DNA from: an uncultured cyanobacterium
GTDB taxonomy: Bacteria > Cyanobacteriota > Cyanobacteriia > PCC-9006 > JAAUQQ01
Assembly: GCA_963718615.1 (NCBI GenBank)
Contig: OY970368.1
Location: forward strand, 640,001-704,000
Direction of reading: 5' to 3'
Length of the DNA: 64,000 bases
How positions within the stretch are numbered: position 1 is the first letter of the stretch; every line of letters starts with the position of its first letter. The translations under genes were made by a program, and so were the position numbers. Under the pieces are notes generated by a model that was not told where the DNA came from, did not search any database, and was given only the letters and a program-made list of their open reading frames with translations. Of the stretch, positions 2,414 through 60,423 are shown in pieces.

Positions 2414-3505
2414 TCAATCCTTAGACTGAGGCGATCGCCCCTCCAAGGTTGTTTGGTGCTGCACCATGAGCCCCTGACGACAATAGTTCCAGGTACTCGG
2501 ATCCTCTCCGGTCACCCACTGGCAATGGTGATCGCGAAATCGGGTCCAAGTTTGTTGCATTTGTCGTAGGAGCGGCTGTTCAACGGGGAGAAGGGTGATG
2601 GCGATCGCATCATAGCGTTGCTGAAGGGCTGCATCGACCTGTTCATAAACCACCTGGGTACAGCGAAACAGCAGATCTCGCTGGGGCGGTGCCCCGAGGA
2701 TCGGCCCATCAACCCGCTCACAGTGCAGGGGCTGACCTTGGTAATACAAAACCCCTAAACGATGGACAGCCGCCAGCATCTCCGCAGTCTGGGGAGATGG
2801 GGTGATCGAATCGCCAGCCGTGGGGCGTACCCAACGCCGCAGCTGACCGGTGCGGGTTTCTGTGAGTGCTGTGAGACAGGTCGTCACAAAGGTTTCGTAG
2901 GTGGGTTGCTGGGCGCGATCGCGGTTGAGGTATTCACAGGCCGCTTGGCGATAGGCGTCCCAGCTAGACTGGGCCTGGTCCAGCAAGGCCACGGAGGTCG
3001 TTGGGGAAGCCGTAGCGGCTTGGGCTGGCTGCTTTTGAAGCTGCTTTTGAATTTGCTGAATCACCTGCTCCTGAAGGCGTTCCGAGGCTTCTAGGGTTTG
3101 TCTTGCACATTGATTGAGCTGGGCTTGACTAACGGGGTCTGCACAGATGAGGGGGGAGAGGGAGGAGAGGGGCGTTGGGGAATTGGGGGAACTGGATGCT
3201 CGGGGAAGGGGCGTTGGGGAAATAGGCGTTGAAGGAATCGGTGTTGAAGGAATCGGTGTTGAAGGAATCGGCGTTGGAGCGGTTGGCGAGCCTAAGCTGG
3301 GGACGGAGGCGGGTTGCTGAGGCGGGGCCGTAGGGCTCGCAAACTCATCGGGGGCCGGCGGCAGCAGCGGACGCGATGTAGGGGAGAGCGTCGGAGTCTC
3401 GGGGGTAGGCGCAAAAGAACCACAGGCGACCATCAAGCCCATCATCCCCCCCAGAAAGCCCAGTGGATATAACCAGTCAACCAGATGATTCCGGGGGTCG
3501 GACAC
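2414..3505 (-). CDS. Putative lipoprotein with a Pro-rich linker and two LprI/DUF1311-like domains
   Basis: Hydrophobic leader ending MVAC (lipobox-like); PIPST repeats; AQSSWDAYRQAAC and QQTWTRFRDHHC motifs. Confidence 0.7.
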   Translation of the reverse strand: MSDPRNHLVDWLYPLGFLGGMMGLMVACGSFAPTPETPTLSPTSRPLLPPAPDEFASPTAPPQQPASVPSLGSPTAPTPIPSTPIPSTPIPSTPISPTPLPRASSSPNSPTPLSSLSPLICADPVSQAQLNQCARQTLEASERLQEQVIQQIQKQLQKQPAQAATASPTTSVALLDQAQSSWDAYRQAACEYLNRDRAQQPTYETFVTTCLTALTETRTGQLRRWVRPTAGDSITPSPQTAEMLAAVHRLGVLYYQGQPLHCERVDGPILGAPPQRDLLFRCTQVVYEQVDAALQQRYDAIAITLLPVEQPLLRQMQQTWTRFRDHHCQWVTGEDPSTWNYCRQGLMVQHQTTLEGRSPQSKD

Positions 3506-15024: not shown

Positions 15025-16131
15025 GTGGCACTCAAGAAATCCGAACTCTATAGCTCGCTTTGGGCAAGCTGCGACGAACTCCGGGGCGGCATGGATGCCA
15101 GCCAGTACAAGGATTATGTGCTGGTTCGGAATTTGATTCAGCGGGGCTATCTCAAGGGGATTATTGGGTTGCCTGCGAACTTGTTTTATGGGACAGGGAT
15201 TCCGGCTTGCATTGTGGTGATTGATAAAGCGAATGCTGGGCAGCGGGATGGCATTTTCATGATTGATGCCAGTGCGGGGTTCATGAAGGATGGCAATAAA
15301 AATCGGTTGGGGGATCGGGATATTCACAAGATTGTGGATGTGTTTACGAATCAGTTAGAAATTGCTGGATACTCGCGGATGGTGCCGCTGGAAGAGATTG
15401 AGCGCTATGACGTGTATCAGCATCTGATGGATTACTGGGCTGAGGTGATGCAGGATGATTGCTATTTGATTGCGGCGGAGGGTTGGCAGGCGCAGACGTA
15501 TCGGATGATTGAGGTGAACAAAAAGGGGAAGGAGGTGGATAAGGGTTGGGCCTGTGATTTGGTGCCGAAGGCGCTGATTGTGGCGCGGTATTTTGCGGCG
15601 GAGCAGGGGGAAATTGCGACGCAGCAGGCGGAACTGGAGGGGGCGAACGCTCAGATGGCGGAGCTAGAAGAGGAGCAGGTTGGGGAAGAGGGGGCTTTTG
15701 CGGAGCTGGAGAAGGTGAATGGGGCGGCGGTCAAGGCGCGGTTGAAGGAGGCGAAGGCTTCTATGGGGAGCGATCCAGGGTTGAAGGCGGAGGTGCAGGT
15801 TTTGCAGGAATGGGTGAAGTTGTCTGATCGACAGACGAAGCTGAAGAAGGCGGTGAAGGAGGCGGAGGATGAGCTGGATCGGTTGGCCTATGGGAAGTAT
15901 CCTGAGCTGACGGTGGAGGAGATTCAGCGGTTGGTGGTGGAGGATAAGTGGTTGGCGCGGATTGGGGCGGAGATTGCGGGGGAGATGGAGCGGGTGAGTC
16001 AGGGGCTGGCGGCGCGGGTGAAGGTTTTGGCGGGGCGGTATGGGGTGGCGTTGCCGGAGCTGACGCAGCGGGTGGTGGCGCTGGAGGCCAGGGTGGCGGG
16101 GCATTTGGCGAAGATGGGGTTCGGAATGTGA
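15025..16131 (+). pseudogene. hsdM: Type I R-M methyltransferase HsdM remnant with in-frame internal deletions
   Basis: N-terminus MALKKSELYSSLWASCDELRGGMDASQYKDYVLV joined directly to GIIGLPANLFYGTGIPAC; no DPxCGSG or NPPF/Y motif. Confidence 0.85.
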
Positions 16132-16406
16132 ATCGTTATAAGCTAAACTTATGTGTAAAGTCAGGGTTGTGTCTGCAAAAGTGGATTTAGTGTACATAAG
16201 ACAATCTTATGTATGAATATTGCTAATTCTCGTTCATATGGCGGCGCGATCTGAAGCAGCTGTTTAGGCCAAGGTGGCTGATGCATAAGTTTTCCTGCTG
16301 TCTGCTCAAGGTGTGGGCGCTCACTCTCTCGGTAGCGTTTCGCTTTTAAGGTTTACACTAGGGTTCATTCTTATTAACGAAAAGAGCGGCTTATTGATAA
16401 TATAGA

Positions 16407-17591
16407 TTGGCGAACTATTCAGTATTAACGGAACCGATAATAGTGGTGAAGACTTCTAGATCTGGTCAATACGTGCGGCAGATCGAGGGTTATGGGGCGT
16501 TTATCCCGAATGATCTGCCACCGATTCCTGAGATTGCGATCGATCAGGAGATGTGGAATCTGCTATCACAGGCAGATCGGGCTTTGGGGCGTTTAGATGG
16601 TTCGACGGATGCACTACCCAATCCGGATTTGTTCGTGTTTATGTATGTCCGAAAGGAAGCTGTGCTGTCTAGTCAGATTGAGGGCACACAGGCGTCATTG
16701 ATTGATGTTTTGGAATTTGAATCTCAGGCATTGGAACCAGATAACCCTCAGGATGTTGAGGAGGTTGTTAATTATATTACGGCGATTAATCATGGGTTAG
16801 AACGGCTTCAGACAATGCCTGTCTCTTTACGGTTGATTCGCGAGATTCACCAAGCGTTGATGAAGGGTGTGAGGGGTGCTGAGCGCAGTCCAGGGGAGTT
16901 TCGACGCTCCCAGAATTGGATTGGGCCAGGGGGTTGTACGTTGGCTAGTGCGACATATGTGCCGCCGCCGCCCCATGAGATGCTGCGGGCTTTGGATAAC
17001 TTGGAGCGGTTTTTGCATAGTCCGCAGCCAATGCCGACGCTGATCAAAGTGGGATTGGCCCATGCCCAGTTTGAAACGATTCACCCTTTCTTGGATGGGA
17101 ATGGCAGGACGGGGCGGCTGTTGATTACGTTCTTACTGTGTGAACAAAATATTTTGCAACGACCCCTGCTGTATATCTCATATTATTTCAAACTGTACCG
17201 GGCTAAATATTATGATCGACTACAGGCCGTTCGCGATCGCGGGGACTGGGAAGGATGGTTGAAGTTCTTTCTGCGTGGCGTTTATGAGGTGGCCCAGGAG
17301 GCAGCGCTGACCGCGCGACAAATCGTCAATTTGAAAGAGGAGCATCGTCAATTGGTGCTGAGTCGAATGGGACGGAAAGCGGGGAATTCGATCGCGGTGC
17401 TTGAGAGTCTTTATTTCAAGCCGATTTTTACAGTTGAACATGTTGCGAATATTACGAATCTCTCGTATCCAAATGCGAATGCCTTGATTAAGCAGTTGAT
17501 TGATATTGGTTTGTTTCAGGAGATTACCGGGCAGAAGCGCAATCGGGCATTTTCCTATGCGCCTTATTTAGCGGTTTTTCAGGATAATTAG
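16407..17591 (+). CDS. Fic-family protein
   Basis: Canonical HPFLDGNGRTGR motif and N-terminal SSQIEGT autoinhibitory-type motif; start may be GTG near 16443. Confidence 0.92.
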   Translation: MANYSVLTEPIIVVKTSRSGQYVRQIEGYGAFIPNDLPPIPEIAIDQEMWNLLSQADRALGRLDGSTDALPNPDLFVFMYVRKEAVLSSQIEGTQASLIDVLEFESQALEPDNPQDVEEVVNYITAINHGLERLQTMPVSLRLIREIHQALMKGVRGAERSPGEFRRSQNWIGPGGCTLASATYVPPPPHEMLRALDNLERFLHSPQPMPTLIKVGLAHAQFETIHPFLDGNGRTGRLLITFLLCEQNILQRPLLYISYYFKLYRAKYYDRLQAVRDRGDWEGWLKFFLRGVYEVAQEAALTARQIVNLKEEHRQLVLSRMGRKAGNSIAVLESLYFKPIFTVEHVANITNLSYPNANALIKQLIDIGLFQEITGQKRNRAFSYAPYLAVFQDN

Positions 17592-17604
17592 AGGAGGAGT
17601 TGGT

Positions 17605-17703
17605 ATGAGGAATTTTAATCTGCGGCATTATGCCGATCGATATCGACTATTTTTTGCTACCAGTGCGGCGGCGTTTTCGTGGATTTTGGAGGGTGAGGGG
17701 TGA
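17605..17703 (+). other. 32-aa mini-ORF (MRNFNLRHYADRYRLFFATSAAAFSWILEGEG), probably a gene remnant
   Basis: Strong GAGGAG Shine-Dalgarno upstream; stop overlaps the hsdS start (GTGA). Confidence 0.4.
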
Positions 17704-18547
17704 GTAGTCAGAAGGTGCCGAAGGGGTATAAGCAGACTGAGGTTGGGGTGATTCCTGAGGATTGGGAGGTTACTAAAGTAAGTGGAATCGCATCACCTGT
17801 AAAAAATGCTATCGTTGGTGGCCCATTTGGCTCAGATCTCGTTTCTAGCGACTACGTTGAAGAGGGGATTCCCGTCATTCGTGGGCAAAATATGGGTGAG
17901 CGATATATCTCGGGAAATTTTGTATTTGTAACTCAAGAGAAAGCTAAATCATTAGAATCTAACCTCGCTCAATCAGAGGATTTATTGTTTACACAACGAG
18001 GAACCCTTGGTCAGGTGAGCCTTGTTCCTGCTAATTCATTTCCGCGCTACTTGATATCGCAAAGTCAAATGAAGCTCACGGTCAGCAGAAGGATAGCTGA
18101 TCCGCTCTTTTTTTATTATGTTTTCAGTTCTTCTGCGCAGCAAAAATATGTTCAACTAAATACTATTCAGACAGGAGTTCCACACGTTAATCTCGGGATT
18201 CTTCGAAGCACTCCTGTACAATTGCCTCAGATCGCCGAGCAAGAAGCCATCGCCCAAGCCCTCAGCGACACCGATGCCCTGCTCGAATCCCTAGAGCAAC
18301 TCCTCGCCAAAAAGCGCCAGATTAAGCAAGGGGCGATGCAGGAGCTGCTGACTCCTCAGGCAAGCTGGAAAGATGAAAAATTAAAAGAAGTTGCACCTTT
18401 ACAAAGAGGATTTGATCTCCCTAACAGTCAATTGAAGCAGGGTCTATATCCTGTTGTATATTCTAATGGAATTCAAAATCATCATAGTCAATTTATGGTT
18501 AAGGCACCTGGTGTTGTTACGGGACGTTCTGGAACACTAGGCGTTAT
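17700..18547 (+). pseudogene. hsdS: Type I R-M specificity subunit HsdS truncated in TRD2 by IS1
   Basis: VPKGYKQTEVGVIPEDWEV, TRD1, EQEAIAQALSD...KKRQIKQGAMQELLT, then the start of TRD2 cut at the IS end. Confidence 0.9.
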
Positions 18548-19452
18548 GGTAGTGCTTTTATGTAAAGGATAAAGAAAAACAGAGTGAAGCAGTTGTAGTC
18601 AATAGGAGCTGAAGATAAAGGGAAAGAAGGGAAAACTGTTGTAGAAACGAGGAGCGGTTGTAGGAGAAAGGAAAAGATGACCATAGAACGTACTTGCCCG
18701 ACCTGTGGCTCCCACGACATTTCCAAGAACGGCACAACCCGCCGAGGCAAACAAAACTACAAATGCCGAGACTGCAACCGACAGTTTGTCGAAGACCCCC
18801 AGTGGAAGCCGAAAGACAAAGACACCCAGAGTTTGATAGACCTGCTGCTGCTAGAGAAAATTCCCCTGGCAGGGATTGCTAGAGCAACGGGCGTTTCGAG
18901 TAGCTGGCTGCAAGATTACGTCAATGAACACTATAAGGCGGTGCCCCAAAAGGCAGAGGTACTGCCCAAAGCGAAAGGAAGGCTGAGGGTGCAAATGGAT
19001 GAGCTATGGTCCTTTGTGGACCATAAGGGCAACAAGCAATGGGTCTGGATAGCTTTGGATGCGAACACCCGAGAGGTGATTGGCTGCCACATCGGCGACC
19101 GCTCCCGAGCATCAGCCGTGGCGTTATGGCAATCCTTACCGTCGGTGTATCGGCAATGCGCCACGGTCTATACGGATTTTTGGGAAGCCTACGAGAGTGT
19201 GATTCCAGCGCAGCGTCATCGTGCCGTCAGCAAAGACAGTGGGTTGACGAGCTACATCGAAAGGTTCAACAACACCCTGAGGCAGAGGGTTTCGCGCCTA
19301 GTGAGAAAAACCTTGTCTTTCTCCAAGAAGCTGGACAACCATATCGGTGCAATTTGGAATTTCATTCATGAGTACAACCGTCTAATCAGAGAAAAGATGC
19401 TGAACAACCAGCCCAGTGCTATTTTCTCCATCCTTTACTAAAGGGGACTACC
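18548..19452 (+). mobile_element. IS1-family insertion sequence, about 905 bp, no target-site duplication
   Basis: Imperfect 23-bp terminal inverted repeats GGTAGTGCTTTTATGTAAAGGAT and (reverse complement) GGTAGTCCCCTTTAGTAAAGGAT; the two flanks do not match. Confidence 0.88.
18677..19441 (+). CDS. IS1-family transposase (single-ORF InsAB)
   Basis: CPTC...CRDC zinc ribbon, QMDELWSFV, YTDFWEAY, IERFNNTLRQR. Confidence 0.92.
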   Translation: MTIERTCPTCGSHDISKNGTTRRGKQNYKCRDCNRQFVEDPQWKPKDKDTQSLIDLLLLEKIPLAGIARATGVSSSWLQDYVNEHYKAVPQKAEVLPKAKGRLRVQMDELWSFVDHKGNKQWVWIALDANTREVIGCHIGDRSRASAVALWQSLPSVYRQCATVYTDFWEAYESVIPAQRHRAVSKDSGLTSYIERFNNTLRQRVSRLVRKTLSFSKKLDNHIGAIWNFIHEYNRLIREKMLNNQPSAIFSILY

Positions 19453-20059
19453 CCGTAATGCAGATATCCAAAGATACTTGGGGAATCATCCTCAAGACAT
19501 CGGGCAACGGTTGAGGCAACTCACAGCCTCAGGCTGGTTGAACAAAGATGGTCATGGCAGAGGTACGAGATACCGCCTGTGCAAGGTGAACTCCTCTCCT
19601 GCCAAGGCTTTCTCTCCTGGATCAACTTCTAGCTCCGAGCATTTGCCCTCAAGCTCCGAGCATTTGCCCTCAAGCTCCGAGCATTTGCCCTCAAGCTCCG
19701 AGCATTTGCCCTCAAGCTCCGAGCATTTGCCCTCAAGCTCCGAGCATTTGCCCTCTCATGATGCAGTCATGCTTTCTTCAGAGATAAGTCATCCAGAAGC
19801 TGAGACCGTTGCTCGGCTTCTGGAAATAGCTGCCCCCATTCGTAATACGCGCAAAATCAATAAAACAATCATGGAGAATGCAATATTGGCACTATGCGAG
19901 GATAAGTGGCTAACATTACGCACCCTTACAGAGCTACTGAATCGTCATTCAGACACCTTAAGAACGCACTATATCAATTCCATGCTGAAGGATGGTCGTC
20001 TAGAAGCTCGTGTTCCTGGTAGCCCCAATCACCCGGCGCAGGCTTATCGCAAAAAATAG
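19453..20059 (+). pseudogene. 5'-truncated C-terminal part of a winged-HTH protein (resembles the tail of AlbA_2/RecG-C-type ATP-binding proteins)
   Basis: Frame is open from the IS end; GWLNKDGHGRGTRY and PGSPNHPAQAYR motifs; family assignment from memory. Confidence 0.6.
19631..19755 (+). repeat. Six tandem copies of 21-bp AGCTCCGAGCATTTGCCCTCA (SSEHLPS)
   Basis: Units start at 19631, 19652, 19673, 19694, 19715 and 19736; identical except the final base of the last copy. Confidence 0.97.
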
Positions 20060-20060
20060 G

Positions 20061-20155
20061 AAAATCGCCACCATCCTCTCCGACATGGACAGCGAAATCG
20101 CCAGCCCCGAAACCAAACTCGCCAAGCCCCACTCAAACAAGGCATGATGCACCTC
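20061..20155 (+). pseudogene. Orphan 3' conserved end of an hsdS gene
   Basis: Translates KIATILSDMDSEIASPETKLAKP, then after a frameshift LKQGMMH, matching the HsdS C-terminal helix. Confidence 0.75.
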
Positions 20156-20185
20156 GTTTTGCCGTTAAGTCGCTGTGTCCATTTA

Positions 20186-20212
20186 AATTCGCCAGACAGT
20201 GCCTGGCGAATT
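20186..20212. other. Perfect 10-bp stem hairpin upstream of the hsdR remnant
   Basis: AATTCGCCAG-acagtgc-CTGGCGAATT. Confidence 0.45.
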
Positions 20213-20271
20213 CCCAAAATTCCCCCATAATAAGACTCACGGCCAAAAGCTCCCCCTCCCCCCGCCCCGCC

Positions 20272-21606
20272 ATGAGCAACATCGGACACTCCGAACGCGT
20301 CACCCAAAACCGTGTGATCACCCTCTTCAAAGATCAACTCGGCTACGACTACCTCGGCAACTGGCAAGATCGCCCCAAAACCACAGGCCAGCCCAACAGC
20401 AACATCGAAGCAATCGACCTCACCCGCCACCTCACCGCCCAAGGCTACAGCCCCGCCCAAATCAGCCAAGCCCTCTACCAACTCCGCACCGAAGCCGACA
20501 AACCCACCCGCAGCCTCTACGACAACAACAAAGCCGTATACAGCCTCCTCTACTACGGCATCCAAATCAAAACCAGCGCCAGCGAACCCACCGAAACCCT
20601 CCAACTAATCAACTGGCAAAACCCCGAACAAAACCACTTCGCGATCGCCGAAGAAGTCACCCTCCAAGGCCAAAAAGAAAAACGCCCCGACCTCGTTTTG
20701 TATCTAAACGGCATCGCGATCGCCCTCATCGAACTCAAAAACAGCCGCGAAGACATCGGCAAAGGCATCCGCCAAAGCCTCACCAACCAACAACCCGAAT
20801 TCATCGGCGCATTCTTCAGCACCATCCAACTGATCTTCGCCGGAAACGATTCCGAAGGACTGCGCTACGGCACCATCGGCACCCCCGAAAAATACTTCCT
20901 CACCTGGAAAGAAGACGAAACCGAAAACAGCACCTACAAACTCGACAAATACCTGCTCAAACTCTGCGAACCACACCGCCTCCTCGACCTCATCCAAAAC
21001 TTCATCCTCTTCGACGCTGGCGTCAAAAAACTCTCCCGCTGCCACCAATACTTCGGAGTCAAAGCCGCCCAGAAACATATCCGCAACCACGAAGGCGGCA
21101 TCATCTGGCACACCACCCAAAGCGGCAAACTCCACCGCACCATGAAAGCCCTCATGCCCAAAGCCACCTTCATCGGTTTCACCGGCACCCCCCTACTCAA
21201 AAAAGACGCCCAAACCAGCCTCGAAGTCTTCGGCAAATACATCCACACCTACAAATTCAGCGAAGCCGTCGAAGACAACATCGTCCTCGACCTGATCTAC
21301 GAAGCCCGTGACATCGACCAAACCCTCGGCTCCGAAACCAAAATCGACGCCTGGTTCGACGCCAAAACCCAAGGACTCAACGACTGGCAAAAAGCCACCC
21401 TACGGGAAAAATGGGGCACCCTGCAAACCGTCCTCAGCCTCGACGGTGAGGACAAAGACTTCGGCTACATCGTCGATTACAAAGACCTGTTCAAAAAAGT
21501 CGAAAACGCGATCGCCGTCTACACCGCTCATTATCTTCATGGATCAATTTATGCCTGCTTGGCGGTTTTACCGAGAAACTCTCGATCAACTGCCTATATG
21601 ACATGA
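20272..21606 (+). pseudogene. hsdR: Type I R-M restriction subunit HsdR remnant with in-frame internal deletions and 3' truncation
   Basis: RPDLVLYLNGIAIALIELK nuclease motif; GIIWHT joined to TQSGKLH (Walker A/DEAH region lost); 444 aa versus roughly 1000 for full HsdR. Confidence 0.85.
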
Positions 21607-49995: not shown

Positions 49996-50673
49996 ATGAC
50001 AAACCAATTCAGGCAGCAGGGCACAGATGGGTCCCAGGAGTTCGTAAATCAGGATTCCGTTGGTTCTGTCGATTTTTATTACTCGGAGGAAGAGGGGACT
50101 CCAGGTATTTCGGAGGAGCTGGCTTGTCATCGATTTCGCATCGAATTTTTGCGGGTGACAGATCCAGATACGAAACAAGGCGCGATTTTGTACGCTGCGG
50201 TTTCGAGGGTGCTGAAGTCCTATCGATTATCCGGTTTATACAGCATTATTGATGTGTTGAATGAAGCCTATGAGCGGGGGGTGCAGGCGAATCAGAAAAA
50301 GGAGATTGAGAATGTTGCGGGTTGGATTCGCCGGACAGGGCGCAATATTGCGTCTGAATGGAGTCGCCTAGAAGATCGTACGGTGTCAGCCGATGAACGA
50401 TTGGCAAACTGGCCAGCGGTAGATCCCTTAGATGGGAATGATTTGAGTCAGGAGCTCAAACGAGTGCGTCTAGCGACTCGAAAATTAGAGCCTCGTGATC
50501 AGCGAATTCTACAGCTCAAAATCGTTGAAAGGCTTCCTTGGTCTGAGGTTCAGCAGATTCTTCGAGATGAAGGGTTTGGTGACTGTACGATTGTGGGGCT
50601 CCGCAAACGCAAGGAGCGGGCACTAACCAGACTTCGGTTGCTTTATCACGAGACGTCTTTGAAAGAGGAGTAA
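49996..50673 (+). CDS. Sigma-70 (ECF-like) RNA polymerase sigma-factor-family protein
   Basis: Region 2-like DVLNEAYERG...GWIRRTGRNI and region 4-like LEPRDQRILQLKIVERLPWSEV...LRKRKERALTRLR. Confidence 0.75.
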   Translation: MTNQFRQQGTDGSQEFVNQDSVGSVDFYYSEEEGTPGISEELACHRFRIEFLRVTDPDTKQGAILYAAVSRVLKSYRLSGLYSIIDVLNEAYERGVQANQKKEIENVAGWIRRTGRNIASEWSRLEDRTVSADERLANWPAVDPLDGNDLSQELKRVRLATRKLEPRDQRILQLKIVERLPWSEVQQILRDEGFGDCTIVGLRKRKERALTRLRLLYHETSLKEE

Positions 50674-50824
50674 TGCGTTTCAGGCTTCTGTTGTCTTTTG
50701 CATTGGGTTGCACCTTCTCTGTTGCAAGCGATCGCCCCACCTCGGCAAATTCAAGAAATTTAATCCCTATGACATCCCTACACCTGCTCAAATAGAATTT
50801 GTCTTGATCGCTTGTATTCCCTGT

Positions 50825-52935
50825 ATGTCCAACCTCAGCCAGCTCGAAGCCTCTCTCTGGGAGGCGGCTGATCAGCTCCGCGCCAATTCAAAACTGAATG
50901 CCTCTGAGTACAGCATGCCGGTACTGGGGCTGATTTTCCTGCGTCACGCGACCAATCGCTACGAGGTCGTGCGGGAGGAGATTGAGAAGACGCTACCGAC
51001 GCGGGGCGGCAAGAAGCGAGCCCTGACCGCTGCGGATTTTAAGAGCAAGGCGGCGCTGTTTTTGCCGGAGACGGCGCATTATGACTATCTCCTGAACCTT
51101 CCAGAAGACAAAAATCTCGGTGCAGCGCTGGTCCAGGCGATGAAGGACATTGAGGAGCAGTCCGACCTGCTGAAGGGTGTGCTGCCGAAGGAGTACACCG
51201 GGTTTGATAAGGCGCTGTTGCGTGACCTGGTGCGGATTTTTGGGCGGGATGAGTTGAAGACGGCCCAGGGCGATGTGTTTGGCCGGATTTATGAATATTT
51301 CCTCAATAAGTTTGCGATGAGCGGTGCCCAGGAAGGGGGCGAGTTTTTCACGCCGCCGTCGCTGGTGCGGATGATTGTGAATGTGATTGAGCCGAAGCGG
51401 GGGGTGGTGTTTGACCCGGCCTGCGGCAGTGCGGGGATGTTTGTGCAAACGGGGCATTTTTTGGAGCGGCTCGGTACGAATCCTTCGGAGAAGGTGACGT
51501 TCTTTGGGCAGGAGAAGTCGGAGACGAATACGCGGCTGGCGAAGATGAACCTGGCGGTGCATGGGCTGGATGGGAATATCCAGCTCGGCAATACGTTCTA
51601 CGACTTTCGCAAGGAGCTGGTGGGAGCCTGTGACTATGTGATGGCAAATCCGCCATTCAATGTGGATTTGGTGGATCCCAAGAAAATCAAGAACGACGAC
51701 CGGCTGTTTACCGAGAAGAAGATTCCGGGCATTAGCCCCAAGACAGAGACGGTAAGCAATGCGAACTACCTGTGGATTCAGTATTTCCATGCCTATCTGA
51801 AGCCGGGTGTGGGTCGTTCTGGGTTTGTGATGGCGAGTTCGGCGTCGGATGCGGGCCATGGGGAGAAGACGATCCGCGAGCAGATTATTGAGACGGGAGA
51901 CGTGGATGCGATCATCTCCATCGGCACAAACTTCTTTTACACGCGCTCATTGCCTTGCACGCTCTGGTTCTTTGACCGGGGGAAGCCGGAGGCCCGCAAG
52001 GACAAGATTTTGATGATCGATGCCCGGAATGTGTTTCGGGTGGTGACGCGGAAGATTAATGACTTTAGCGAGGAGCAGCTTCAGAATCTAACGGCGATTA
52101 CTTGGTTGTATCGCGGGGAGACGAAGCGGTTCTTGGGGCTGGTGCGGTCCTATATTGAGCAGGTGTATGGCGAGGCGGAGCCTTTGGTGGAGCGGCTGGC
52201 TGGCTGGGATACAGCGCTGGAGCCGTTGATGGGTCGGTTGAAGCAGCTAGGGGAAACGGTGCAGCCGCTGATGACGGAGAAGGCTGAGGTGACAGCGGAG
52301 TCGGTGGAGGCGTTTAAGGCGCAATGGGTGGAGCTGGAGGCGGCTGTGGTGCAGCTAGGTGAGGACCGAGCAGCGTTGATGGCTGGCATTGGGGCTTTGC
52401 CGATGCCGGAGGAGCTGGAGACGAATGAGGCCCAGCATAGGTGGGCGGAGCAATTTGGGGCGCAGGTGTCGTTGTGGAAGGCGGTGCAGAAGGAGACAAA
52501 TCAGGTTTATAAGCTGGTGGGCCGAGGGGTGGAGTTGGCGGAGAAGCAGTTGGGGGCAAGGGGGCTGAAGGACTGGAATAGCCGGGAGGTGCGGCAGGAG
52601 CGGCAGGGGCTGGAGGCGGCGCGGGATGGTGTGGTGGCTGTGGTGAACAGGTGCTGTATTTCGAGCAGCAGGTGCTGTGGTTGCAGTCACGGTTCCCGGA
52701 GGCGGCGATGGTGGATGTGCCGGGGCTTTGTCGGGTGATTGAGCGGGGTGAGATTGAGGATGGGAGTTTGACGCCGGGGCGGTATGTGGGCGTGGCTGCT
52801 CAGGTGGAGGATGAGGATGAGGAGGCGTTTGAGGAGCGGATGCGGGCGATCCATGGGGAGTTGGCGGGGTTGAATGCGGAGGCGGTGGAGTTGGCTGAGG
52901 CGATTCAGAGCAATTTTGCAGAGCTGGGTTTTTAG
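50825..52935 (+). pseudogene. hsdM: Type I R-M methyltransferase HsdM with a one-base frameshift near 52647
   Basis: GEFFTP, DPACGSAG and NPPF intact; C-terminus VLYFEQQ...SLTPGRYVG...FAELGF lies in another frame; could be a sequencing error. Confidence 0.85.
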
Positions 52936-52938
52936 CTA

Positions 52939-53436
52939 CTAGGCGGGAAGCCCCGCGCTCTCCCGAAGGGGAGCGTCGGGATGAGAGCCAGGGGCACTGA
53001 GGGGGTTCGATGCCCCCGAAGTGCCCAAAACAGGAGAATCTTGCTGCTCAATGTACCGCTTCAGGACGGATACCGTGACCCCTCCACAACTGGCAATGAA
53101 GTACGACTCATTCCAGAGCACTGACTTCCAATAGAACTTGTTCACGCGCTCTGAAAACTCAGACCGCAGTCTGCGGCTAGAGACAGACTTCAAGTTGTTG
53201 ATGAACTTGGGCAGCGCCATCTGAGGGTAGTACTGAAACAAGACGTGGATATGGTCGGCCTCACCGTTGACCTCTATCACCTTGCAGTCCCACTTCTCAC
53301 ACAGGTCGCCAACTACTTCTGTCAGTCGTTGCAGCATCTCAGCAGTGAACACTTTGCGGCGGTATTTTGTGGTCAGCACCAGATGGGCTTTAAGGTCTGA
53401 AACCGACCGCCCACTCGAAACAAAGTCGTCTTTCAT
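52939..53436 (-). CDS. tnpA: IS200/IS605 Y1 (HUH) transposase TnpA
   Basis: HLVLTTKYRR, DHIH (HUH), LWNESYF, YIEQQ. Confidence 0.95.
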   Translation of the reverse strand: MKDDFVSSGRSVSDLKAHLVLTTKYRRKVFTAEMLQRLTEVVGDLCEKWDCKVIEVNGEADHIHVLFQYYPQMALPKFINNLKSVSSRRLRSEFSERVNKFYWKSVLWNESYFIASCGGVTVSVLKRYIEQQDSPVLGTSGASNPLSAPGSHPDAPLRESAGLPA

Positions 53437-53471
53437 TAATCAGTGTGCCTTGAAAGTGTTACACTCATTGT

Positions 53472-54752
53472 ATGCGAATAGCCTACCAATATCGACTGCA
53501 ACCAACCTACGAACAGCGGTGTCAGATGAGCTGCTGGCTTGATATGTTGCGGCACCAGTACAACTGGTTGCTGGCAGATCGCTTTGATTGGTGGGAGATG
53601 AACCGCTGCCCAGTCAACGCTTGCCCGCTGGTGACGAGTATCGCTGAGCTACGGGAGCGGCCCAACTACTACAGTCAGAAGCGGTCATTGGTACCCCTAA
53701 AGGGTGAACGGCCTTGGTACAAAGAGGTTCACTCCCAAGTCCTTCAGGACATGGTGAAGCGGGTTAACTTGGCGTTTGAGCGATTCATCAAGGGCGATAG
53801 CTCGGGCAAGCGTAGTGGCAAGCCCCGGTTCAAGGGGCAGCACCGCTATCGCACGTTCACCTATCCCCAGGCAAGTCACGACTGGCTAGACGGCAACCGT
53901 GTCATGCTGCCTAAGATTGGGGCAGTGAAGTTCATCTGCCACAGGCCATTACCTGAAGGGTTCGCGCTCAAGACGGTGGCAATCTCGCTCAAGGCCGATG
54001 GTTGGTACATCACGTTCTCCCTAGAGGACAAGTCGGTGCCAGAAAATCCCCTGCCTGAGGTTGTCCCGACCGAGGCAAACAGCATCGGGGTTGATGCTGG
54101 GTTGGAGTATTTCGTCGCTTGTTCAGACGGCACCACGAAGACGCCACCCAAGTTCTACCGCCAAGCTGAAGAAAGGCTGGCCAAGCTTCAGGCGAAGCGT
54201 GAACTGAGGCCCAAAGGGTCGAAGGCGCGGCGAAAGCTGAATGCCAAAATTGCCAGGTTGCACCAGCGCATTGCTAGGCAGCGGCGGCAATGGCATTTTG
54301 AAACGGCTGGCGAGTTGGTTGCCAAAGCTGATGTGATTTTTGTGGAGGATCTGCAAGTTGCCAACATGACCCGCCGCTGCAAGCCGAAGCAGAGTGAGGG
54401 CGGCGGTTTCTTGCCCAACGGTCAGGCGGCCAAGTCTGGGTTGAATAAAAGTTTTGCTGATGCTGGGATAGCGGGGTTCCTAACCAACATCCTTCCGTAC
54501 AAAGCTGAGAAAGCTAGGCGGCTGGTCGTGAAAGTTAACCCCGCTGGGACATCCCAGCATTGTGCAATTTGCCTGAACCGAGTACCAAAGGAGTTATCCG
54601 ACCGCTGGCATGATTGCCCCCACTGTGGAGCCTCTATGCCGCGAGACGTGAATTCTGGAGTACTCATCAGAAAAGTGGGCCTGGGGCATCGGCTCACTAT
54701 AAAACGCGAATCTGGGGCAACCCGGAGGAGAAGCCCGCGCCGTACCGCCTAA
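53472..54752 (+). CDS. tnpB: RNA-guided endonuclease TnpB
   Basis: RuvC motifs GVDAG, VEDL and RDVN, and zinc finger CAIC...CPHC all present. Confidence 0.95.
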   Translation: MRIAYQYRLQPTYEQRCQMSCWLDMLRHQYNWLLADRFDWWEMNRCPVNACPLVTSIAELRERPNYYSQKRSLVPLKGERPWYKEVHSQVLQDMVKRVNLAFERFIKGDSSGKRSGKPRFKGQHRYRTFTYPQASHDWLDGNRVMLPKIGAVKFICHRPLPEGFALKTVAISLKADGWYITFSLEDKSVPENPLPEVVPTEANSIGVDAGLEYFVACSDGTTKTPPKFYRQAEERLAKLQAKRELRPKGSKARRKLNAKIARLHQRIARQRRQWHFETAGELVAKADVIFVEDLQVANMTRRCKPKQSEGGGFLPNGQAAKSGLNKSFADAGIAGFLTNILPYKAEKARRLVVKVNPAGTSQHCAICLNRVPKELSDRWHDCPHCGASMPRDVNSGVLIRKVGLGHRLTIKRESGATRRRSPRRTA

Positions 54753-54817
54753 GCGGTCGGCGTCGGGAGTATGTCACTGGAGTCTCTAGAATGGCGGTAG
54801 TGATGAGGAGATGGGGT

Positions 54818-55060
54818 ATGAGAACGTTTGAGGCGCAGGTGACGGTTTCGGCGGATCGGCGGTTGATGATTGAGCTGCCGGAGGGCGTTGAGGCGGGGAG
54901 CTATCAGATCGTGGTGGTGATGAATCGGAGTGATGAGGTGCAGGCGGAACCTCAGGCGAGGCGGGGGCTGGATGGGTTGGCGGGTCGGGTGCGATCGTTT
55001 GCGGCGGTGGATGCGGTGAGCTGGCAGCGGCAGGTGAGGTCTGAGTGGAATGACGCTTGA
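54818..55060 (+). CDS. Putative antitoxin (VapB-position partner)
   Basis: 80 aa, GAGGAG Shine-Dalgarno, C-terminal WQRQVRSEW, overlaps the PIN gene. Confidence 0.7.
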   Translation: MRTFEAQVTVSADRRLMIELPEGVEAGSYQIVVVMNRSDEVQAEPQARRGLDGLAGRVRSFAAVDAVSWQRQVRSEWNDA

Positions 55061-55421
55061 CTATGTTTTGGATACGAACATTTTTATTCTGCTGTTCAAT
55101 GACCAGTTGGCTGAGCCAATCCCGGAGGGGCGTTTAGGCTTTTCTGTGATTACGGAGATTGAGCTGCTGTCGTTTGCGGGGCTGGCTGAGGAAGATGAGC
55201 GGCTGATTCGTCAGGAGTTGCAGGTGTTGGAGCGGGTGCCTTTGGATGAGGCGGTGAGTGAACGGGCGATCGCCCTACGCAGGCGCTCTCGGCTGAGGAC
55301 ACCGGATGCGATCGTGGCGGCGAGTGCTGAGGCAACGGAGGCGATGCTGTTGACGAATGATCAGCAGTTGCTGGCGGTGGAGGGGATTCGGGCGCAGGCG
55401 TTGAGAATGCGGGGGGAGTAA
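55050..55421 (+). CDS. vapC: VapC-family PIN-domain toxin
   Basis: VLDTNIFI, SVITEIE, PDAIVAASA, LLTND. Confidence 0.9.
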   Translation: MTLDYVLDTNIFILLFNDQLAEPIPEGRLGFSVITEIELLSFAGLAEEDERLIRQELQVLERVPLDEAVSERAIALRRRSRLRTPDAIVAASAEATEAMLLTNDQQLLAVEGIRAQALRMRGE

Positions 55422-55490: not shown

Positions 55491-56756
55491 ATGAGTTGGA
55501 AGTCATTGCTTATCGGCAACTTGGTGGAGGAAGGGCATATCGATATCCAGACAGGACCCTTTGGAACTCAGCTCAAAGCTTCTGAATATACCGAAATAGG
55601 AACTCCTGTGATCAATGTTCGTAATATTGGTTACTCCAGTTTACGAGCTGACAAATTAGAATTTGTACCTGAACAAAAGCGAGATCAGCTAGCGCAACAT
55701 GTTCTATTAGAAAACGATATTGTTTTTGGGCGTAAGGGAGCAGTTGATAGACATCTTTTTGTACAAGAAGAACAATCAGGTTGGGTCCAGGGTTCAGATT
55801 GTATTCGGTTGAGATTTCTATCTAATAAGATTAGTCCAAGATTTATTTCTTATCTTTTTTTGCTTGATTCTCATAAAGAGTGGATGCTGACCCAGTGCTC
55901 TAATAAAGCTACGATGGCATCCTTAAATCAAGATGTTATCAAGCGGATACCTGTAAAGATTCCGAATGAAACAACTCAAGAAAAAATCGTTGAATTTTTG
56001 TCAAATTATGACGACCTCATCGACAACAACAACCGCCGCATCGCCCTGCTAGAGGAAGCCGTGCATCGCCTGTACCGCGAGTGGTTTGTGCATTTGCGCT
56101 TTCCGGGGCATGAGCGGGTGGCGGTGGTTGATGGGGTGCCGGAGGGGTGGGAAAAGATAGCTTTAGGAGAGATCGCAGACCGCTATAACGGAATTGTTCA
56201 AACTGGTCCTTTCGGCTCTCAGCTTCATAAAAGTGATTATGTTGAGCAAGGTATTCCAGTGGTCATGCCGAAAAATATTAAAGGAGACAAGATAGCTTTA
56301 GATACGATCGCTTTTATCGATGAAGCAACTGCTACTCGCTTGTCAAGACATATCTTAAATATTGGAGATATCGTATTTCCACGTCGCGGTGACTTGAATA
56401 AAAGGGCTTTAATATCAAAAAATGAAGCAGGATATTTATGTGGAACAGGATGCTTAAAGATAAGCATTCCTCAGCAAAAATTATCTTCGCTTTACCTGTT
56501 TAATTATCTAAGAGGTCAGGAAGCTGTCAATTTTATTAATAACAATGCAGTCGGGGCTACTATGGCTAACTTGAGTGCAGGAATTCTGAAATCTTTGCCA
56601 GTCCTTCTGCCGCACAAAAATGTACAAAAGCACTTTGAGAAAATAACAAGTCCTGTCTTTGAACAGACTAATTTGTTGCATAGCCAAAATGTTTTATTGC
56701 GCGAAGCCCGCGATCGCCTCCTCCCCCGCCTGATGAACGGCAGCATCACCGTCTAA
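55491..56756 (+). CDS. hsdS: Type I R-M specificity subunit HsdS (intact, two TRDs)
   Basis: Central DDLIDNNNRRIALLEE...EWFVHLRFPG...VPEGW; C-terminal REARDRLLPRLMNG. Confidence 0.94.
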   Translation: MSWKSLLIGNLVEEGHIDIQTGPFGTQLKASEYTEIGTPVINVRNIGYSSLRADKLEFVPEQKRDQLAQHVLLENDIVFGRKGAVDRHLFVQEEQSGWVQGSDCIRLRFLSNKISPRFISYLFLLDSHKEWMLTQCSNKATMASLNQDVIKRIPVKIPNETTQEKIVEFLSNYDDLIDNNNRRIALLEEAVHRLYREWFVHLRFPGHERVAVVDGVPEGWEKIALGEIADRYNGIVQTGPFGSQLHKSDYVEQGIPVVMPKNIKGDKIALDTIAFIDEATATRLSRHILNIGDIVFPRRGDLNKRALISKNEAGYLCGTGCLKISIPQQKLSSLYLFNYLRGQEAVNFINNNAVGATMANLSAGILKSLPVLLPHKNVQKHFEKITSPVFEQTNLLHSQNVLLREARDRLLPRLMNGSITV

Positions 56757-59148
56757 AATCACAACCGCCCGGAGTCTTAATCGCTACTCTTGTAGAAAAG
56801 AAAGATCCGTAAGACCCACCGGGCCACCCCATGAGCGCCGAATACTCCGAAGACAAACTCGTCCAAGAAACCTACGCCGACTACTTCGAGCAAAGCCTCG
56901 GCTGGCAAAGCATCTTTGCCTACAACGACGAAACCCTCGGACCCACCGGCACCTTAGGCCGCACCAGCCAAACCGAAACCCTCCTGCTGCGCCCCCTCCG
57001 CGCCGCCCTAGAACGCCTCAACCCCGGCCACCCCGCCACCGCCTACGACCAGGCCATCGAAAGCGTCACAAGCTACAACCCCTCCACCCCCCTGCTCAAA
57101 ATCAACCAGAGCAAACACCAGCTCCTGCGCGACGGCATCCCCGTCAAATACGACGACCCCACCAGCGGCGACCCCCTCGAACCCCGCCTCAAAGTCATCG
57201 ACTTCGACCAGCCCGACCAAAACGAATTTCTCATCGTCCGCGAACTCTGGATTCAAGGCCCCTACAAACGCTGCCGCCCCGATATCCTCGGCTTCGTCAA
57301 CGGCATTCCCCTCCTGTTCATCGAACTCAAACGCACCGACAAAAAACTCCAAACCGCCTACGACCAAAACCTGACCAACTACAAGCAATACATCCCCGAA
57401 CTCTTCCACCACAACGCCTTTTGCATCCTCAGCAACGGCGACAGAGCCCGTGTCGGCACCTTCGCCAGCCCCTACGCCTTCTTCAACGAGTGGAAACGCC
57501 TCGACGAAGACGAAGTGGGCCGCGTAGACTTCGAGACGATGCTCATGGGCATCTGTGACAAACGCAACTTCCTGGACCTGGTGGAAAACTTCATCCTGTT
57601 TGACGACAGCAGCGGCGAACTCGTCAAAATCCTGGCCCGCAATCATCAGTTCCTCGGCGTCAACCGCGTTATTCAGCGCATCCAAGAGCGGCGGACACTC
57701 CGGGACAGTGAGGATCCAAAGGTTCAGGAAGCGATCAAACGCCTCGGCGTCTTTTGGCACACCCAGGGCAGCGGCAAGTCCTACTCCATGGTCTTCCTAA
57801 CCGAAAAAGTCCACCGCAAAATCGGCGGCTACTCCTTCCTCATCGTCACCGATCGCCAAGAACTCGACCGCCAAATCGCCGAAACCTACGTCGGCACCGG
57901 AGCGGTCCAGGCCACCGCTGGCAAACAACTCCCCAACCAAGCCACCAGCGGCGAAAGCCTCAAAACCCTGCTCCAGGGCAACCAACGCTACGTCTTCAGC
58001 TTGATTCACAAATTCAACCAAGACATTGCCGACAATGACCCCGTGGGCTATAGCGACAGAGACAACATCATCGTCATCTCCGACGAGGCCCACCGCACCC
58101 AGTACGGCAAGCTCGCCGTCAACATGCGCAAGGCCCTCCCCAACGCCGCCTTTATCGGCTTCACCGGCACGCCCCTGATGGAATCCGAAGAAGACCAGAA
58201 GACCCGCGAAGTCTTTGGCGACTACGTTTCGGTGTATGACTTCCAGCGGGCGATCGAAGACGAGGCCACCGTGCCGCTCTACTACGACAACCGAGGCGAG
58301 AAGCTGGAGATCACCACCGATGAGGTCAACGAGCGGGTGGCTGAAAAGCTAGAGGAACATGACCTCAGCGAAGCAGACGAGGCGCGACTGATGCGGCGGC
58401 TGGGGGGTGACTACGCTGTGATTACGGCTCAAGAGCGGCTAGAGCATATCGCGCAGGACTTGGTGAAGCACTTTTGCGATCGCTGGCAAACCGGCAAAGC
58501 CATGCTCGTCTGCATCGACAAAATCACCACGGTCAAGATGCACGCTCTGATCGATCAGTACTGGAAGCAAGAAATCAAAGCCCAAGAAAAGTTAGTTCGC
58601 AAGGCAACCGATGAGCAGGACAAACAGGACCAGCAGCGCAAGCTCGATTGGCTGAAAGAAACCGAATACCACGTCGTGATCAGCAAAGCCGCCGATGAGG
58701 TCAAGGTGTTTCGGGATCATGAGCTGGATATTGTGCCCCACCGGCAAGTGATGGAGCAGCGAGATTTGGAAACCGAGTTTCGCAAAGATGATCATCCCTT
58801 TCGGCTGGCGATCGTCTGTGCCATGTGGCTCACCGGGTTTGATGTGCCCAGCCTCGCCACGCTCTACATGGACAAGGCCATGCGCGGCCACACGCTGATG
58901 CAGACGATCGCCCGCGCCAACCGCGTTTCTGAAGGCAAGAACAACGGCCTGCTCGTGGACTACAGCGGTATCCTCAAAAGCTTCCGCGCTGCCCTGGCCA
59001 AGTATGGCAAGGCAGCGGTGGAACAGACACAAGGTAATCGCCTCACCGCCCAAGAAGCTGGAGGAACGTATTCAGTGGGCGACAAGAATGCTCCCTACAA
59101 CGCCATGGAAAAGCTGCGGGACGACTACGCCGCAGCCGTGCAAGCCTG

Positions 59149-60423
59149 TGAAGTGACCCCCAAAACCTGAACAGAAGCGAGAGAGAGTAAGCTAAAGTCT
59201 AGGAGGCAAAAGGGTCATGGCAAAAAGACAGAGAAATTACAGCAGCGAGTTCAAGGCCAAGGTGGTACTGGAAATGGTCAGCGGCCAGCGGTCGCCGACG
59301 GAGGCAAGTCGAGCTCATAAGGTCCATCTATCAGTGCTATGCCGGTGGAAGAATGAATTTCTCAAGCAGGCCCATCGAGCATTTGAAGGGAAAGAATCAA
59401 ATGACGAAGCCTCAGAGAGAATAAGCGAATTAGAAAGAATGATAGGTCGATTGACAATGGAGCTGGAAGTGTCAAAAAAAGCTTCGGATGTGTGGAACCT
59501 GAGCGGAAACGGAAAATGATAGAGGAGTTCAAGGAAGACTATCCCATTCAAATTATTTGCGATGTGATTGGATACAGTCGAAGCCGATATTACTACAAGC
59601 CGAAGTCAGAGAAAGAAGATGAAGACGAAAAGCTCAGAGTAGCGATTATCGAAGTTGCAGGAAGATATCCGACTTACGGTTACAGACGGATAACGAAACA
59701 ACTTCAGCGAGAAGGATGGAGTGTCAACCATAAGCGAGTGAGTCGTCTGATGAGGCAGTTAGGTCTACTAGCTCAAAAGCGGGTGAGGCGGAAGCGAACG
59801 ACGAACAGTGTGCATGGCTATCGGCGTTATCCAAATCTGGAGAAAGGGCTGTTGGTAATGCGTCCTGAGCAGGTGTGGGTGGCGGACATCACCTATATCC
59901 GCTTGAAGGAGGAGTTTGTCTATCTGGCAGTGGTGATGGATGTATTCACCCGCAGTATACGAGGATGGCACCTGGATAAGACAATGGAGAAGAGCTTGAC
60001 GATAACAGCACTGGAGAAGGGATTGATGAAAGCAATTCCCGAGATACATCATTCAGATCAAGGGGTGCAATATGCAGCGAATGACTATGTAAAAATGTTG
60101 GAAGAACACAACGTTAAGATTAGTATGGCAGCTATCGGGAAAGCCTGGGAGAATGGATATGCGGAAAGATTAATGAGAACGATCAAAGAAGAGGAAGTAG
60201 ACCTATCAGAATACCGAAACTTTAGTGAGGTCTATGAGCGAATAGAAGAGTTTCTAGAGGAAGTGTATATGAAGAAAAGAATCCACTCGTCATTGAGCTA
60301 TTTGACACCGGCTGAATTTGAAGAAAAGTGGATGCGCGGGCAACAGAATGCAGAAGTGTGATAAAAGTAAAACAACTCTCGCTTAGGCCAGATCTTTCTG
60401 TCCAAAGGAAGGGGTTCACTTCA
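59149..60423 (+). mobile_element. IS3-family insertion sequence, 1275 bp, 3-bp target-site duplication CTG
   Basis: TG...CA ends; 26-bp inverted repeats with 18/26 matches; CTG at 59146-59148 and 60424-60426. Confidence 0.95.
59217..60361 (+). CDS. IS3 transposase OrfA (59217-59519) and OrfB (59516-60361), with a probable -1 programmed frameshift
   Basis: A7G slippery site at 59474-59481; DDE motifs WVADITY, HSDQG, AERL. Confidence 0.9.

Follow-up and report, generated by a model that had tools for sequence, protein, structure and literature searches.

The type I specificity gene hsdS of an uncultured cyanobacterium carries a real synonymous strand asymmetry in the conserved arms that adjoin its target recognition domains (TRDs): third codon positions are enriched in G (and T) before a TRD and in C after it. 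This gene, hereafter the main hsdS, is found at positions 55491-56756 (plus strand) of the window, that is, of the whole stretch of 64,000 nucleotides under analysis (positions 640,001 to 704,000 of contig OY970368.1). In the window's own class, the oxygenic cyanobacteria, the polarity runs for kilobases into the flanking genes, with G-ending codons upstream of hsdS and C-ending codons downstream. The descriptive result is solid. By its domains and neighbours, the gene itself appears to be an ordinary two-TRD type I hsdS within an hsdM...hsdS-hsdR operon: its 421-amino acid product matches the Pfam family Methylase_S (PF01420, E 1.1e-24) in 2 stretches, and our own TRD model places the domains at residues 31-200 and 248-414. 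The following parts can be differentiated:

55491-56009, plus strand: N-terminus and TRD1; GC content 0.38, without third-position skew.
56010-56081, plus strand: arm A, in the central conserved region, formed by the helix that follows TRD1; codons ending in C, GC content at third positions (GC3) 0.88.
56082-56156, plus strand: arm B, the linker before TRD2, with PEGWE as its final motif; codons ending in G or T.
56157-56693, plus strand: TRD2; GC content 0.38, without third-position skew.
56694-56756, plus strand: distal conserved arm (end of the post-TRD2 helix) and stop codon; C-ending codons.

An earlier note on this DNA had described a flip of the skew inside the central spacer of hsdS, and all its base counts proved exact on recount. 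Just after TRD1, 56011-56050 has 18 C, 6 G, 11 A and 5 T, while just before TRD2, 56111-56150 has 25 G, 4 C, 8 T and 3 A; after TRD2, 56700-56756 has 25 C and 13 G, and the C-richness runs about 70 nucleotides (nt) beyond the stop codon. The TRDs are AT-rich, as had been stated, with a GC content of 0.38 in both 55491-56010 and 56151-56690 versus 0.52 in the host genome (one contig of 6.10 Mb). The GC content of the conserved arms of the main hsdS is 0.60-0.72.

That note had foreseen that the amino acids of the spacer might fully account for its composition. Each arm was recoded synonymously 20,000 times with codons drawn from the usage of the genome, and the difference G minus C at third positions was found to be: (i) -11 in arm A (56010-56081), versus an expected -1.5 (standard deviation, sd, 3.2; P 0.002); (ii) +16 in arm B (56082-56156), versus an expected +2.1 (sd 3.3), a value reached in 0 of the 20,000 draws; and (iii) -11 in the distal arm (56694-56753), versus an expected +1.0 (sd about 3.2; P 0.0001). 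At positions 1 and 2 the difference is as the residues predict (2 vs 3.7 in arm A, 11 vs 10.5 in arm B, and 0 vs -1.2 in the distal arm). The flip from C to G sits at third positions and, hence, amino acids do not explain it. Conditioning on the next base changes the outcome little (z -3.0, +3.9 and -3.6, respectively), so that the arms are polarised at synonymous sites and the explanation by amino acid constraints fails under both treatments. Arm A uses C at every possible third position. Arm B shuns C: all five of its NNY (pyrimidine-ending) codons end in T, three glycine codons are GGG, and four of the five valine codons are GTG. The N-terminal arm of the main hsdS is unskewed (z +0.9); the gene has no G-rich N-terminal arm because, according to our TRD model, it has almost no arm before TRD1.

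This genome is over-dispersed in third-position composition: |z| is 3 or more in 16% of the 15-codon windows with a GC3 of at least 0.75, and G minus C at third positions has an sd of 5.76 across 25-codon windows genome-wide. Of 2281 long open reading frames (ORFs), 35 show a flip of at least 27, compared with 28 in hsdS. In such a noisy genome a single arm is only moderately unusual and, therefore, it is the consistent pattern of signs that carries weight.

The same arm signs are found in both other hsdS genes tested in the genome, with unskewed TRDs. One of them is a broken copy belonging to a second locus inside the window, whose features are given below together with the fraction G/(G+C) at four-fold degenerate sites (hereafter, the four-fold fraction):

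15025-21606, plus strand: decayed type I locus, the second in the window, polarised like the main one.
15025-16131, plus strand: hsdM fragment; four-fold fraction 0.92, the highest among the 2281 ORFs.
16407-17591, plus strand: Fic gene, upstream of the broken hsdS; four-fold fraction 0.73.
17700-18572, plus strand: broken hsdS; arm z +3.3, -3.5 and +2.1.
18677-19441: IS1-family transposase, in TRD2 of the broken hsdS.
20272-21606, plus strand: hsdR fragment; four-fold fraction 0.08, the second lowest among the 2281 ORFs.

The broken hsdS had been said to show the same layout as the main one, and it does: 17700-17770 has 31 G and 7 C, 18235-18310 has 32 C and 15 G, and 18325-18350 has 12 G and 5 C, with z +3.3 in the N-terminal arm, -3.5 in the post-TRD1 helix and +2.1 in the pre-TRD2 arm. 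The third hsdS, intact and located at 5.017 Mb, gives z +2.9 in its N-terminal arm, -2.4 (weak) and then +1.5 in the central region, and -3.8 in the distal arm.

Beyond this genome, hsdS genes of different conserved-region families and phyla show the arm polarity as a statistical tendency. A TRD profile of 169 positions was built from the ORFs of the retrieved loci, and in its coordinates the pre-arm spans -40 to -11, the core 0 to 120, and the post-arm 130 to 169. In about 35 genes from the cyanobacterial phylum, which cover many types of conserved region, the four-fold fraction for the first and second domains, respectively, is 0.62 and 0.50 in pre-arms, 0.44 and 0.38 in cores, and 0.32 and 0.23 in post-arms, with 0.40-0.52 expected from codon box and next base. 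In a second set, 19 genes that belong to other families and come from ten genomes outside that phylum, it is 0.62 and 0.53 in pre-arms, 0.47 in cores, and 0.35 and 0.26 in post-arms (expected, 0.43-0.47), the pre-arm exceeding the post-arm in 18 domains and falling below it in 6. First-domain pre-arm values may take in ribosome-binding sequence, since the ORFs run from stop to stop. When post-arm helices were clustered by protein similarity, 23 of the 29 clusters had at least 5 informative sites; C exceeds G in 20 of these 23 and G exceeds C in 3 (binomial p 0.0005), and the post-arm lies below the core in 18 clusters versus 5. Two-fold codons concur, as codons ending in G gain ground in pre-arms and those ending in C in post-arms, with a higher GC3 in either kind of arm than in the TRD cores. 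The general signal is, then, chiefly C after the TRD, and the extension of the polarity to further hsdS families is borne out by both gene sets and by the helix clusters.

The genes around the main hsdS are polarised too. The rest of the main locus comprises:

50708-52738, plus strand: hsdM; Pfam N6_Mtase and HsdM_N.
52939-54752: IS200/IS605-type insertion between hsdM and hsdS, breaking the G-rich domain; skew about 0.
52939-53436, minus strand: ORF of the IS200/IS605-type element, within the inserted element.
53472-54752, plus strand: tnpB; Pfam OrfB_IS605, Cas12f1-like_TNB and HTH_OrfB_IS605 (for 53472-54749).
54614-55421, plus strand: two small overlapping ORFs between hsdM and hsdS, the first named by position only.
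55050-55421, plus strand: PIN-domain gene, the second of these small ORFs; Pfam PIN for 55050-55418.
56831-59170, plus strand: hsdR, 779 amino acids; Pfam HSDR_N, SWI2_SNF2, ResIII and T1R_D3-like.
59217-60361: IS3-family element after hsdR; Pfam rve/HTH_21 for 59492-60358.

At four-fold sites, the main hsdM has 0.60 G and 0.20 C (fraction 0.75), and the main hsdR has 0.69 C and 0.20 G (fraction 0.23). In hsdM, 0.88 of NNR (purine-ending) codons end in G and 0.39 of NNY codons in C; in hsdR, these values are 0.41 and 0.76, respectively. Genome-wide, the four-fold fraction has a mean of 0.458 and an sd of 0.10 (2281 ORFs), with only 1.9% of the ORFs at 0.70 or more and only 2.4% at 0.25 or less, so that hsdM and hsdR occupy opposite tails of about 2%. 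This gene-level sd of 0.10 compares with about 0.04 expected from sampling; extreme instances in the window lie at 15091-16131 and 20272-21606. The bias is graded with distance: the halves of hsdM climb towards hsdS (from 0.71 to 0.83 and from 0.70 to 0.89), and those of the main hsdR go from 0.11 in the first half to 0.36 in the second. Likewise, GC skew rises from about 0 to +0.50 across hsdM towards its 3' end, drops to about 0 in the insertion sequence (IS) element, returns at +0.32 to +0.46 in the region of the PIN gene that precedes hsdS, and reaches -0.45 at the start of hsdR, fading to about 0 some 1.5 kb in. The earlier note had considered the mark resolvable to tens of bases, and this does not hold for cyanobacteria, where it runs kilobases into hsdM and hsdR.

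Two further type I loci lie on the minus strand of the genome. At 2.486 Mb, the four-fold fraction is 0.80 in hsdM and 0.10 in hsdR; at 5.017 Mb, the genes hsdR-DUF1016-hsdS-AAA_13-hsdM give 0.47, 0.47, 0.47, 0.20 and 0.20. Both keep the gene-relative sign and, in consequence, the polarity tracks gene orientation and not chromosome coordinate. As hsdM is C-biased when it lies downstream (5.017 Mb) and the Fic gene reaches 0.73 when it lies upstream, position and not gene family sets the sign. Directly 3' of the hsdR at 2.486 Mb, uvrB (genome positions 2481082-2483154, minus strand; 1085-3154 of locus L178) has a fraction of 0.33 in the half next to hsdR and of 0.46 in the far half; the C bias may be bleeding into this core gene, with a value inside the normal range of the genome.

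In other genomes of the window's class, co-oriented upstream genes have a pooled four-fold fraction of 0.69 (14 of 15 above 0.5 and 1 tie), and co-oriented downstream genes one of 0.21 (15 of 15 below 0.5). Two-fold codons agree: C-ending NNY codons go from 0.24 upstream to 0.56 downstream, and G-ending NNR codons from 0.52 to 0.21. Upstream and downstream values are 0.44 and 0.42 in other classes of the phylum, 0.41 and 0.44 in other phyla, and 0.45 and 0.48 in the non-cyanobacterial members of the main hsdS family, compared with 0.73 upstream and a G:C count of 4:69 downstream in two cyanobacterial members of that same family (L041 and L076); inside a single gene family, then, the polarity depends on the host. 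Neighbouring ORFs were called mechanically, and C-rich strands hold few stop codons; nevertheless, the downstream ORFs are real genes, since a Pfam family matches the called frame in 14 of the 16. Eight of these are HSDR_N, and six other downstream families are RhuM+Fic, DUF1016/YhcG, Uma2, DUF4145, HepT-like and Aminotran_5. Of the 19 upstream ORFs, 4 were compared with Pfam, and three of these 4 are N6_Mtase. A full-text literature search, outside which subscription journals and supplementary files fell, so that a description in print is possible, returned no account of skew or codon polarity at hsdS; the flank-spreading polarity seems to be undescribed.

Relatives of the central conserved peptide of the main hsdS were found at 503 loci at least, in one-per-species genomes of many phyla and of archaea. 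In a codon alignment of 81 sequences (80 loci and the main hsdS), these fall mainly into two DNA types. The main hsdS groups with eight sequences that have C at third positions (C3) in arm A and G (G3) in arm B; they come from Proteobacteria and one Chloroflexota member, and share 82-83% DNA identity with it over about 145 nt. Many family members match the core of the distal arm at 89-97% identity over 35-39 nt. On this evidence, the central-arm pattern of the main hsdS was inherited together with conserved-region DNA that is also present in Proteobacteria, and not made in place. In the majority type (L014-L093, codon columns 14-67), third bases form blocks of C, G, C and G of about 10, 13, 22 and 9 codons, and the same residue (Leu, Arg, Val, Pro, Gly) is G-ending in one block and C-ending in the next. 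A negative correlation between the skews of arms A and B (r -0.48, 81 homologues) is read as the presence of two main DNA lineages and not as covariation. Third-base identity at identical residues is 0.58 in the conserved region versus 0.51 in hsdM, being higher in 142 of 199 pairs; with such a small difference, the idea of an "ultra-conserved" conserved-region DNA was dropped.

Exchange of TRDs at the boundaries of the arms is visible among the alleles as protein mosaics: (i) in P0039, the arms are 96, 96 and 86% identical, TRD1 74% and TRD2 19%; and (ii) in P0036, the arms are 88, 92 and 90% identical, TRD1 21% and TRD2 69%. The earlier note went further and held that the exchange leaves the mark. 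Swapping is seen, no observation ties the mark to it, and the A/B pattern of the main hsdS is, as said, inherited. Its remark that no silent TRD array is visible holds for the whole genome, where blastn of the three conserved hsdS stretches matched only themselves and thus revealed no intragenomic donor copies; the other hsdS paralogues of the genome are only 24-30% identical in protein. No close allele of the main hsdS was found among 60 related genomes, and its best matches in a large protein collection show 50-59% identity overall. Among the annotated neighbouring ORFs, no recombinase adjoins hsdS, only IS transposases; and no inverted repeats join the arms. On these counts the layout is not that of an inverting or shuffling phase-variable system, nor is it one of simple-repeat phase variation, the sequence read having no C run longer than 5 and no 12-nt tandem repeat.

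A number of other explanations of the arm bias were set aside. Next-base context is a real effect in the genome (G3 is favoured before G), yet the pooled arm bias remains. The third-position residual is coupled to the skew of positions 1 and 2 with an r of only 0.11 genome-wide; windows rich in helix formers have a mean z of +0.2 and no C3 bias; and an optimal-codon signature is not apparent in the ribosomal-protein cluster, with a four-fold fraction of 0.44. Neither a general 5'-to-3' gradient along operons (0.452 vs 0.453 in 537 adjacent co-oriented pairs) nor a gene-end effect (mean z -0.21 in first and +0.12 in last gene windows) was observed. A hairpin between arms A and B (minimum free energy -64.8 kcal/mol, z -1.1) was equalled by 29 of 200 shuffles, and a conserved hairpin was discarded as well: the alifold consensus of 80 homologues has hardly any paired bases (-3.3 kcal/mol), and the folds of the two sequence types are not alike. 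A switch linked to replication does not fit minus-strand loci that keep the gene-relative sign, nor the lack of any genome-wide trend with strand or position. Finally, a simple deamination mark is disfavoured because the arms are GC3-enriched.

As regards the cause, strand-asymmetric recombination or repair centred on the TRDs is weakly favoured, with a probability of about 0.4; we infer it from geometry alone. On either side of a TRD, G lies on the strand that has its 3' end towards the TRD; GC3 is raised; the bias fades with distance; and each TRD has its separate switch. This geometry, together with the dependence on position and not on family, would fit a process centred on the TRDs or on hsdS that treats the two strands differently. 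According to such a mechanism, (i) variable domains would be replaced or repaired by recombination centred on the TRDs; (ii) the single strand with a 3' end would be the top one 5' of these domains and the bottom one 3' of them; (iii) GC-biased mismatch correction would favour G on the invading strand; and (iv) GC3 would rise, with G fixed upstream and C fixed downstream, fading with distance. RecC (PF04257) was not found in this complete genome. A broader version is doubtful: hypervariable TRDs would be centres of recurrent break-and-copy replacement, in which each event bares these same strands and G-favouring correction on the invading strand writes a lasting, strand-specific and GC-enriching footprint, restricted to the arms in most bacteria and extending over kilobases in oxygenic cyanobacteria.

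Several observations weigh against recombination or repair as the cause. No recombination event, break or heteroduplex was observed, and third positions that are 60-70% G or C require a strong bias or selection. Within the main gene's own family, to judge from the alignment, the polarity claimed in the earlier note is not general: (i) most sequences follow the block layout C, G, C, G at third bases, unlike the main hsdS; (ii) the four-fold fraction after TRD1 is 0.51 in the family; and (iii) in the distal arms, G3 exceeds C3 in 31 of 78 and C3 exceeds G3 in 37 of 78. Across hsdS genes in general the G bias before TRD2 is weak (0.50-0.53 vs an expected 0.41-0.48), strong as it is in the main hsdS. 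With respect to the flanks, upstream genes at 5.017 Mb show no G bias; the counts in the window's class overstate independence because loci in one class are kin; and the proteobacterial loci that share the main A/B pattern have unpolarised flanks (0.41 upstream and 0.51 downstream), for which reason arm and flank polarity may have different causes. To this must be added that the other extreme G3/C3 genes of the genome are conflict genes unrelated to hsdS.

Among the alternatives, positional selection on codons or messenger RNA (mRNA) is unlikely. It supposes that G/U-ending codons before hsdS and C/A-ending codons after it tune translation, mRNA stability or structure, and that this is tolerated only in Rho-less cyanobacteria, given that elsewhere a long stretch of RNA rich in C and poor in G signals Rho to load. 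It agrees with a sign that tracks gene orientation and operon position, with a polarity confined to one class, and with third positions so near saturation as to suggest selection; besides, this 100%-complete genome yielded no Rho RNA-binding domain, and neither did the control Synechococcus elongatus. But the sign is independent of function (hsdM is G3 upstream but C3 downstream) and is adopted by unrelated cargo genes according to their position, C3 is not a signature of high expression here (0.44 in the ribosomal-protein cluster), and the 537 adjacent pairs reveal no general effect of operon position; this selection also leaves unexplained how the skew can flip in the space of 75 nt inside the central conserved region and why arms are polarised in other phyla. 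Inherited composition, somewhat less probable still, would have modules with G3 upstream and C3 downstream circulating by horizontal transfer in a cyanobacterial pool, the arms keeping the codons of the donor. Fourteen of 15 upstream genes versus 0 of 15 downstream genes above 0.5, a split that spans no fewer than 7 families of downstream genes and several of hsdS, are difficult to reconcile with it, as are the helix clusters (20 vs 3), the extension of position dependence to an hsdM downstream of hsdS, and a synonymous identity of 0.58 vs 0.51 in hsdM, which argues that there is no frozen common DNA. In its favour are the 82-83% DNA identity of the central arm to proteobacterial homologues with the same third-position pattern, the 89-97% identity over 35-39 nt of the distal arm core to many family members, the lack of skew in inserted IS elements, and the fact that the other extreme G3/C3 genes of the genome are mobile or conflict genes.

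Convergent transcription is an improbable cause: the upstream half would be transcribed in the sense direction and the downstream half strongly in antisense, each with a transcription-linked excess of G over C on its non-template strand, and the two would meet at hsdS. Cyanobacteria commonly make antisense RNA, restriction subunits are often present at low levels, and the polarity is indeed linked to orientation and of the terminus type (plus, then minus). The magnitude (skew of +/-0.45; 60-70% G or C at four-fold sites) is, however, far above usual transcription effects, GC3 is raised and not lowered, and two flips inside hsdS could not be produced in this way. That amino acid constraint plus chance would suffice, with the residues of the spacer acting in a noisy genome, is very improbable indeed. 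Arm B is certainly G-rich by its residues at positions 1 and 2 (+11 of a total of +27), |z| reaches 3 in 16% of high-GC3 windows, and 35 of the 2281 ORFs have an equal flip. Nevertheless, a third-position excess of 3-4 sd persists after conditioning on residues and next base, the signs agree in three paralogues, the pattern replicates across families and phyla, third-position coupling is weak (r 0.11), and helix-rich windows are free of C3 bias.

Some known systems offer likenesses. In replication- and transcription-associated GC skew, an excess of G over C on one strand switches to the opposite at a defined point, mainly at third codon positions. The likeness lies in this switch, while here the polarity is linked to orientation, local to type I loci, several-fold stronger (+/-0.45) and able to flip twice in one gene. 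The vls locus of Borrelia has GC skew and G-runs at a place of recombination-driven variation, and GC-biased gene conversion occurs in bacteria. Raised GC and strand asymmetry beside recombination-replaced cassettes are common to them and to the main locus, but here there is no silent cassette array, and biased conversion as usually described comes without strand skew.

Reassortment of TRDs through conserved flanks is reportedly the subject of classical work on StySB/StySP/StySQ and EcoR124. Further sources describe domain movement in the type I specificity subunits of Helicobacter pylori (PMC3077401) and hsdS alleles of Xylella (10.1101/2022.09.01.506293, a preprint). The main locus resembles these systems in having two Methylase_S TRDs, central and distal conserved regions, hsdM and hsdR as neighbours, and alleles that differ in one TRD. 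It differs from them in that it has neither an invertase nor a silent hsdS array, and in the synonymous strand asymmetry of arms and flanks, which the available passages of those sources do not mention; a paper on Streptococcus suis gives GC contents for whole systems only. In the XfaII hsdS of Xylella, the preprint locates poly-C tracts in two places, directly ahead of the core conserved region and where the terminal conserved region starts (10.1101/2022.09.01.506293). The main hsdS is C-rich at these same structural points, directly behind each TRD, which is a suggestive parallel; the tracts there described are, however, homopolymers of 7-9 nt involved in phase variation by frameshift, whereas here the longest run is C5 and the bias spans about 20-40 codons.

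Other features of the window and the genome may be mentioned. Just 5' of hsdM, an ORF of 225 amino acids (49996-50673) without a Pfam family has a GC skew of +0.26 to +0.28 and lies inside the G-rich domain. Three insertion elements (IS200/IS605, IS3-family and IS1-family) are found in or beside the two type I loci of the window, all lacking the surrounding skew, and for this reason they look recently arrived; given the adjoining IS3-family element, the 3' end of the main-locus hsdR may be cut. In the distal arm, 56700-56725 contains a GCGATCGC palindrome, which we take to be the cyanobacterial HIP1 element and whose flanked form recurs exactly (15-20 nt) at dozens of sites of the genome. The 20 further most extreme ORFs of the genome in G3/C3 usage are mostly conflict or mobile genes (EAD1, CHAT, five times, Roc-COR-LRR, TPS, an MmeI-like enzyme, Cas1, RAMP, NACHT and DUF1016), with a few housekeeping genes among them (aconitase family, QueG). 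Since these extreme genes are mostly conflict genes, the phenomenon may reach beyond type I loci.

The main hsdS is, in itself, a routine gene. What is unusual is a synonymous switch between G and C that is linked to orientation and centred on hsdS, that parts upstream from downstream neighbours almost perfectly in one class, and that places hsdM and hsdR at opposite extremes of codon usage. If recombination or repair writes the mark, it would be a new kind of mutational footprint, one that dates and locates specificity switching and that might flag other diversifying cassettes; and should the break-and-copy version be true, synonymous switches from plus to minus skew would be a readable map of hot spots of cassette replacement. 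If selection writes it, an unknown layer of expression control of restriction systems would exist in Rho-less bacteria. Either way, the detection of foreign genes by codon usage and local skew analyses are confounded at hsdS loci.

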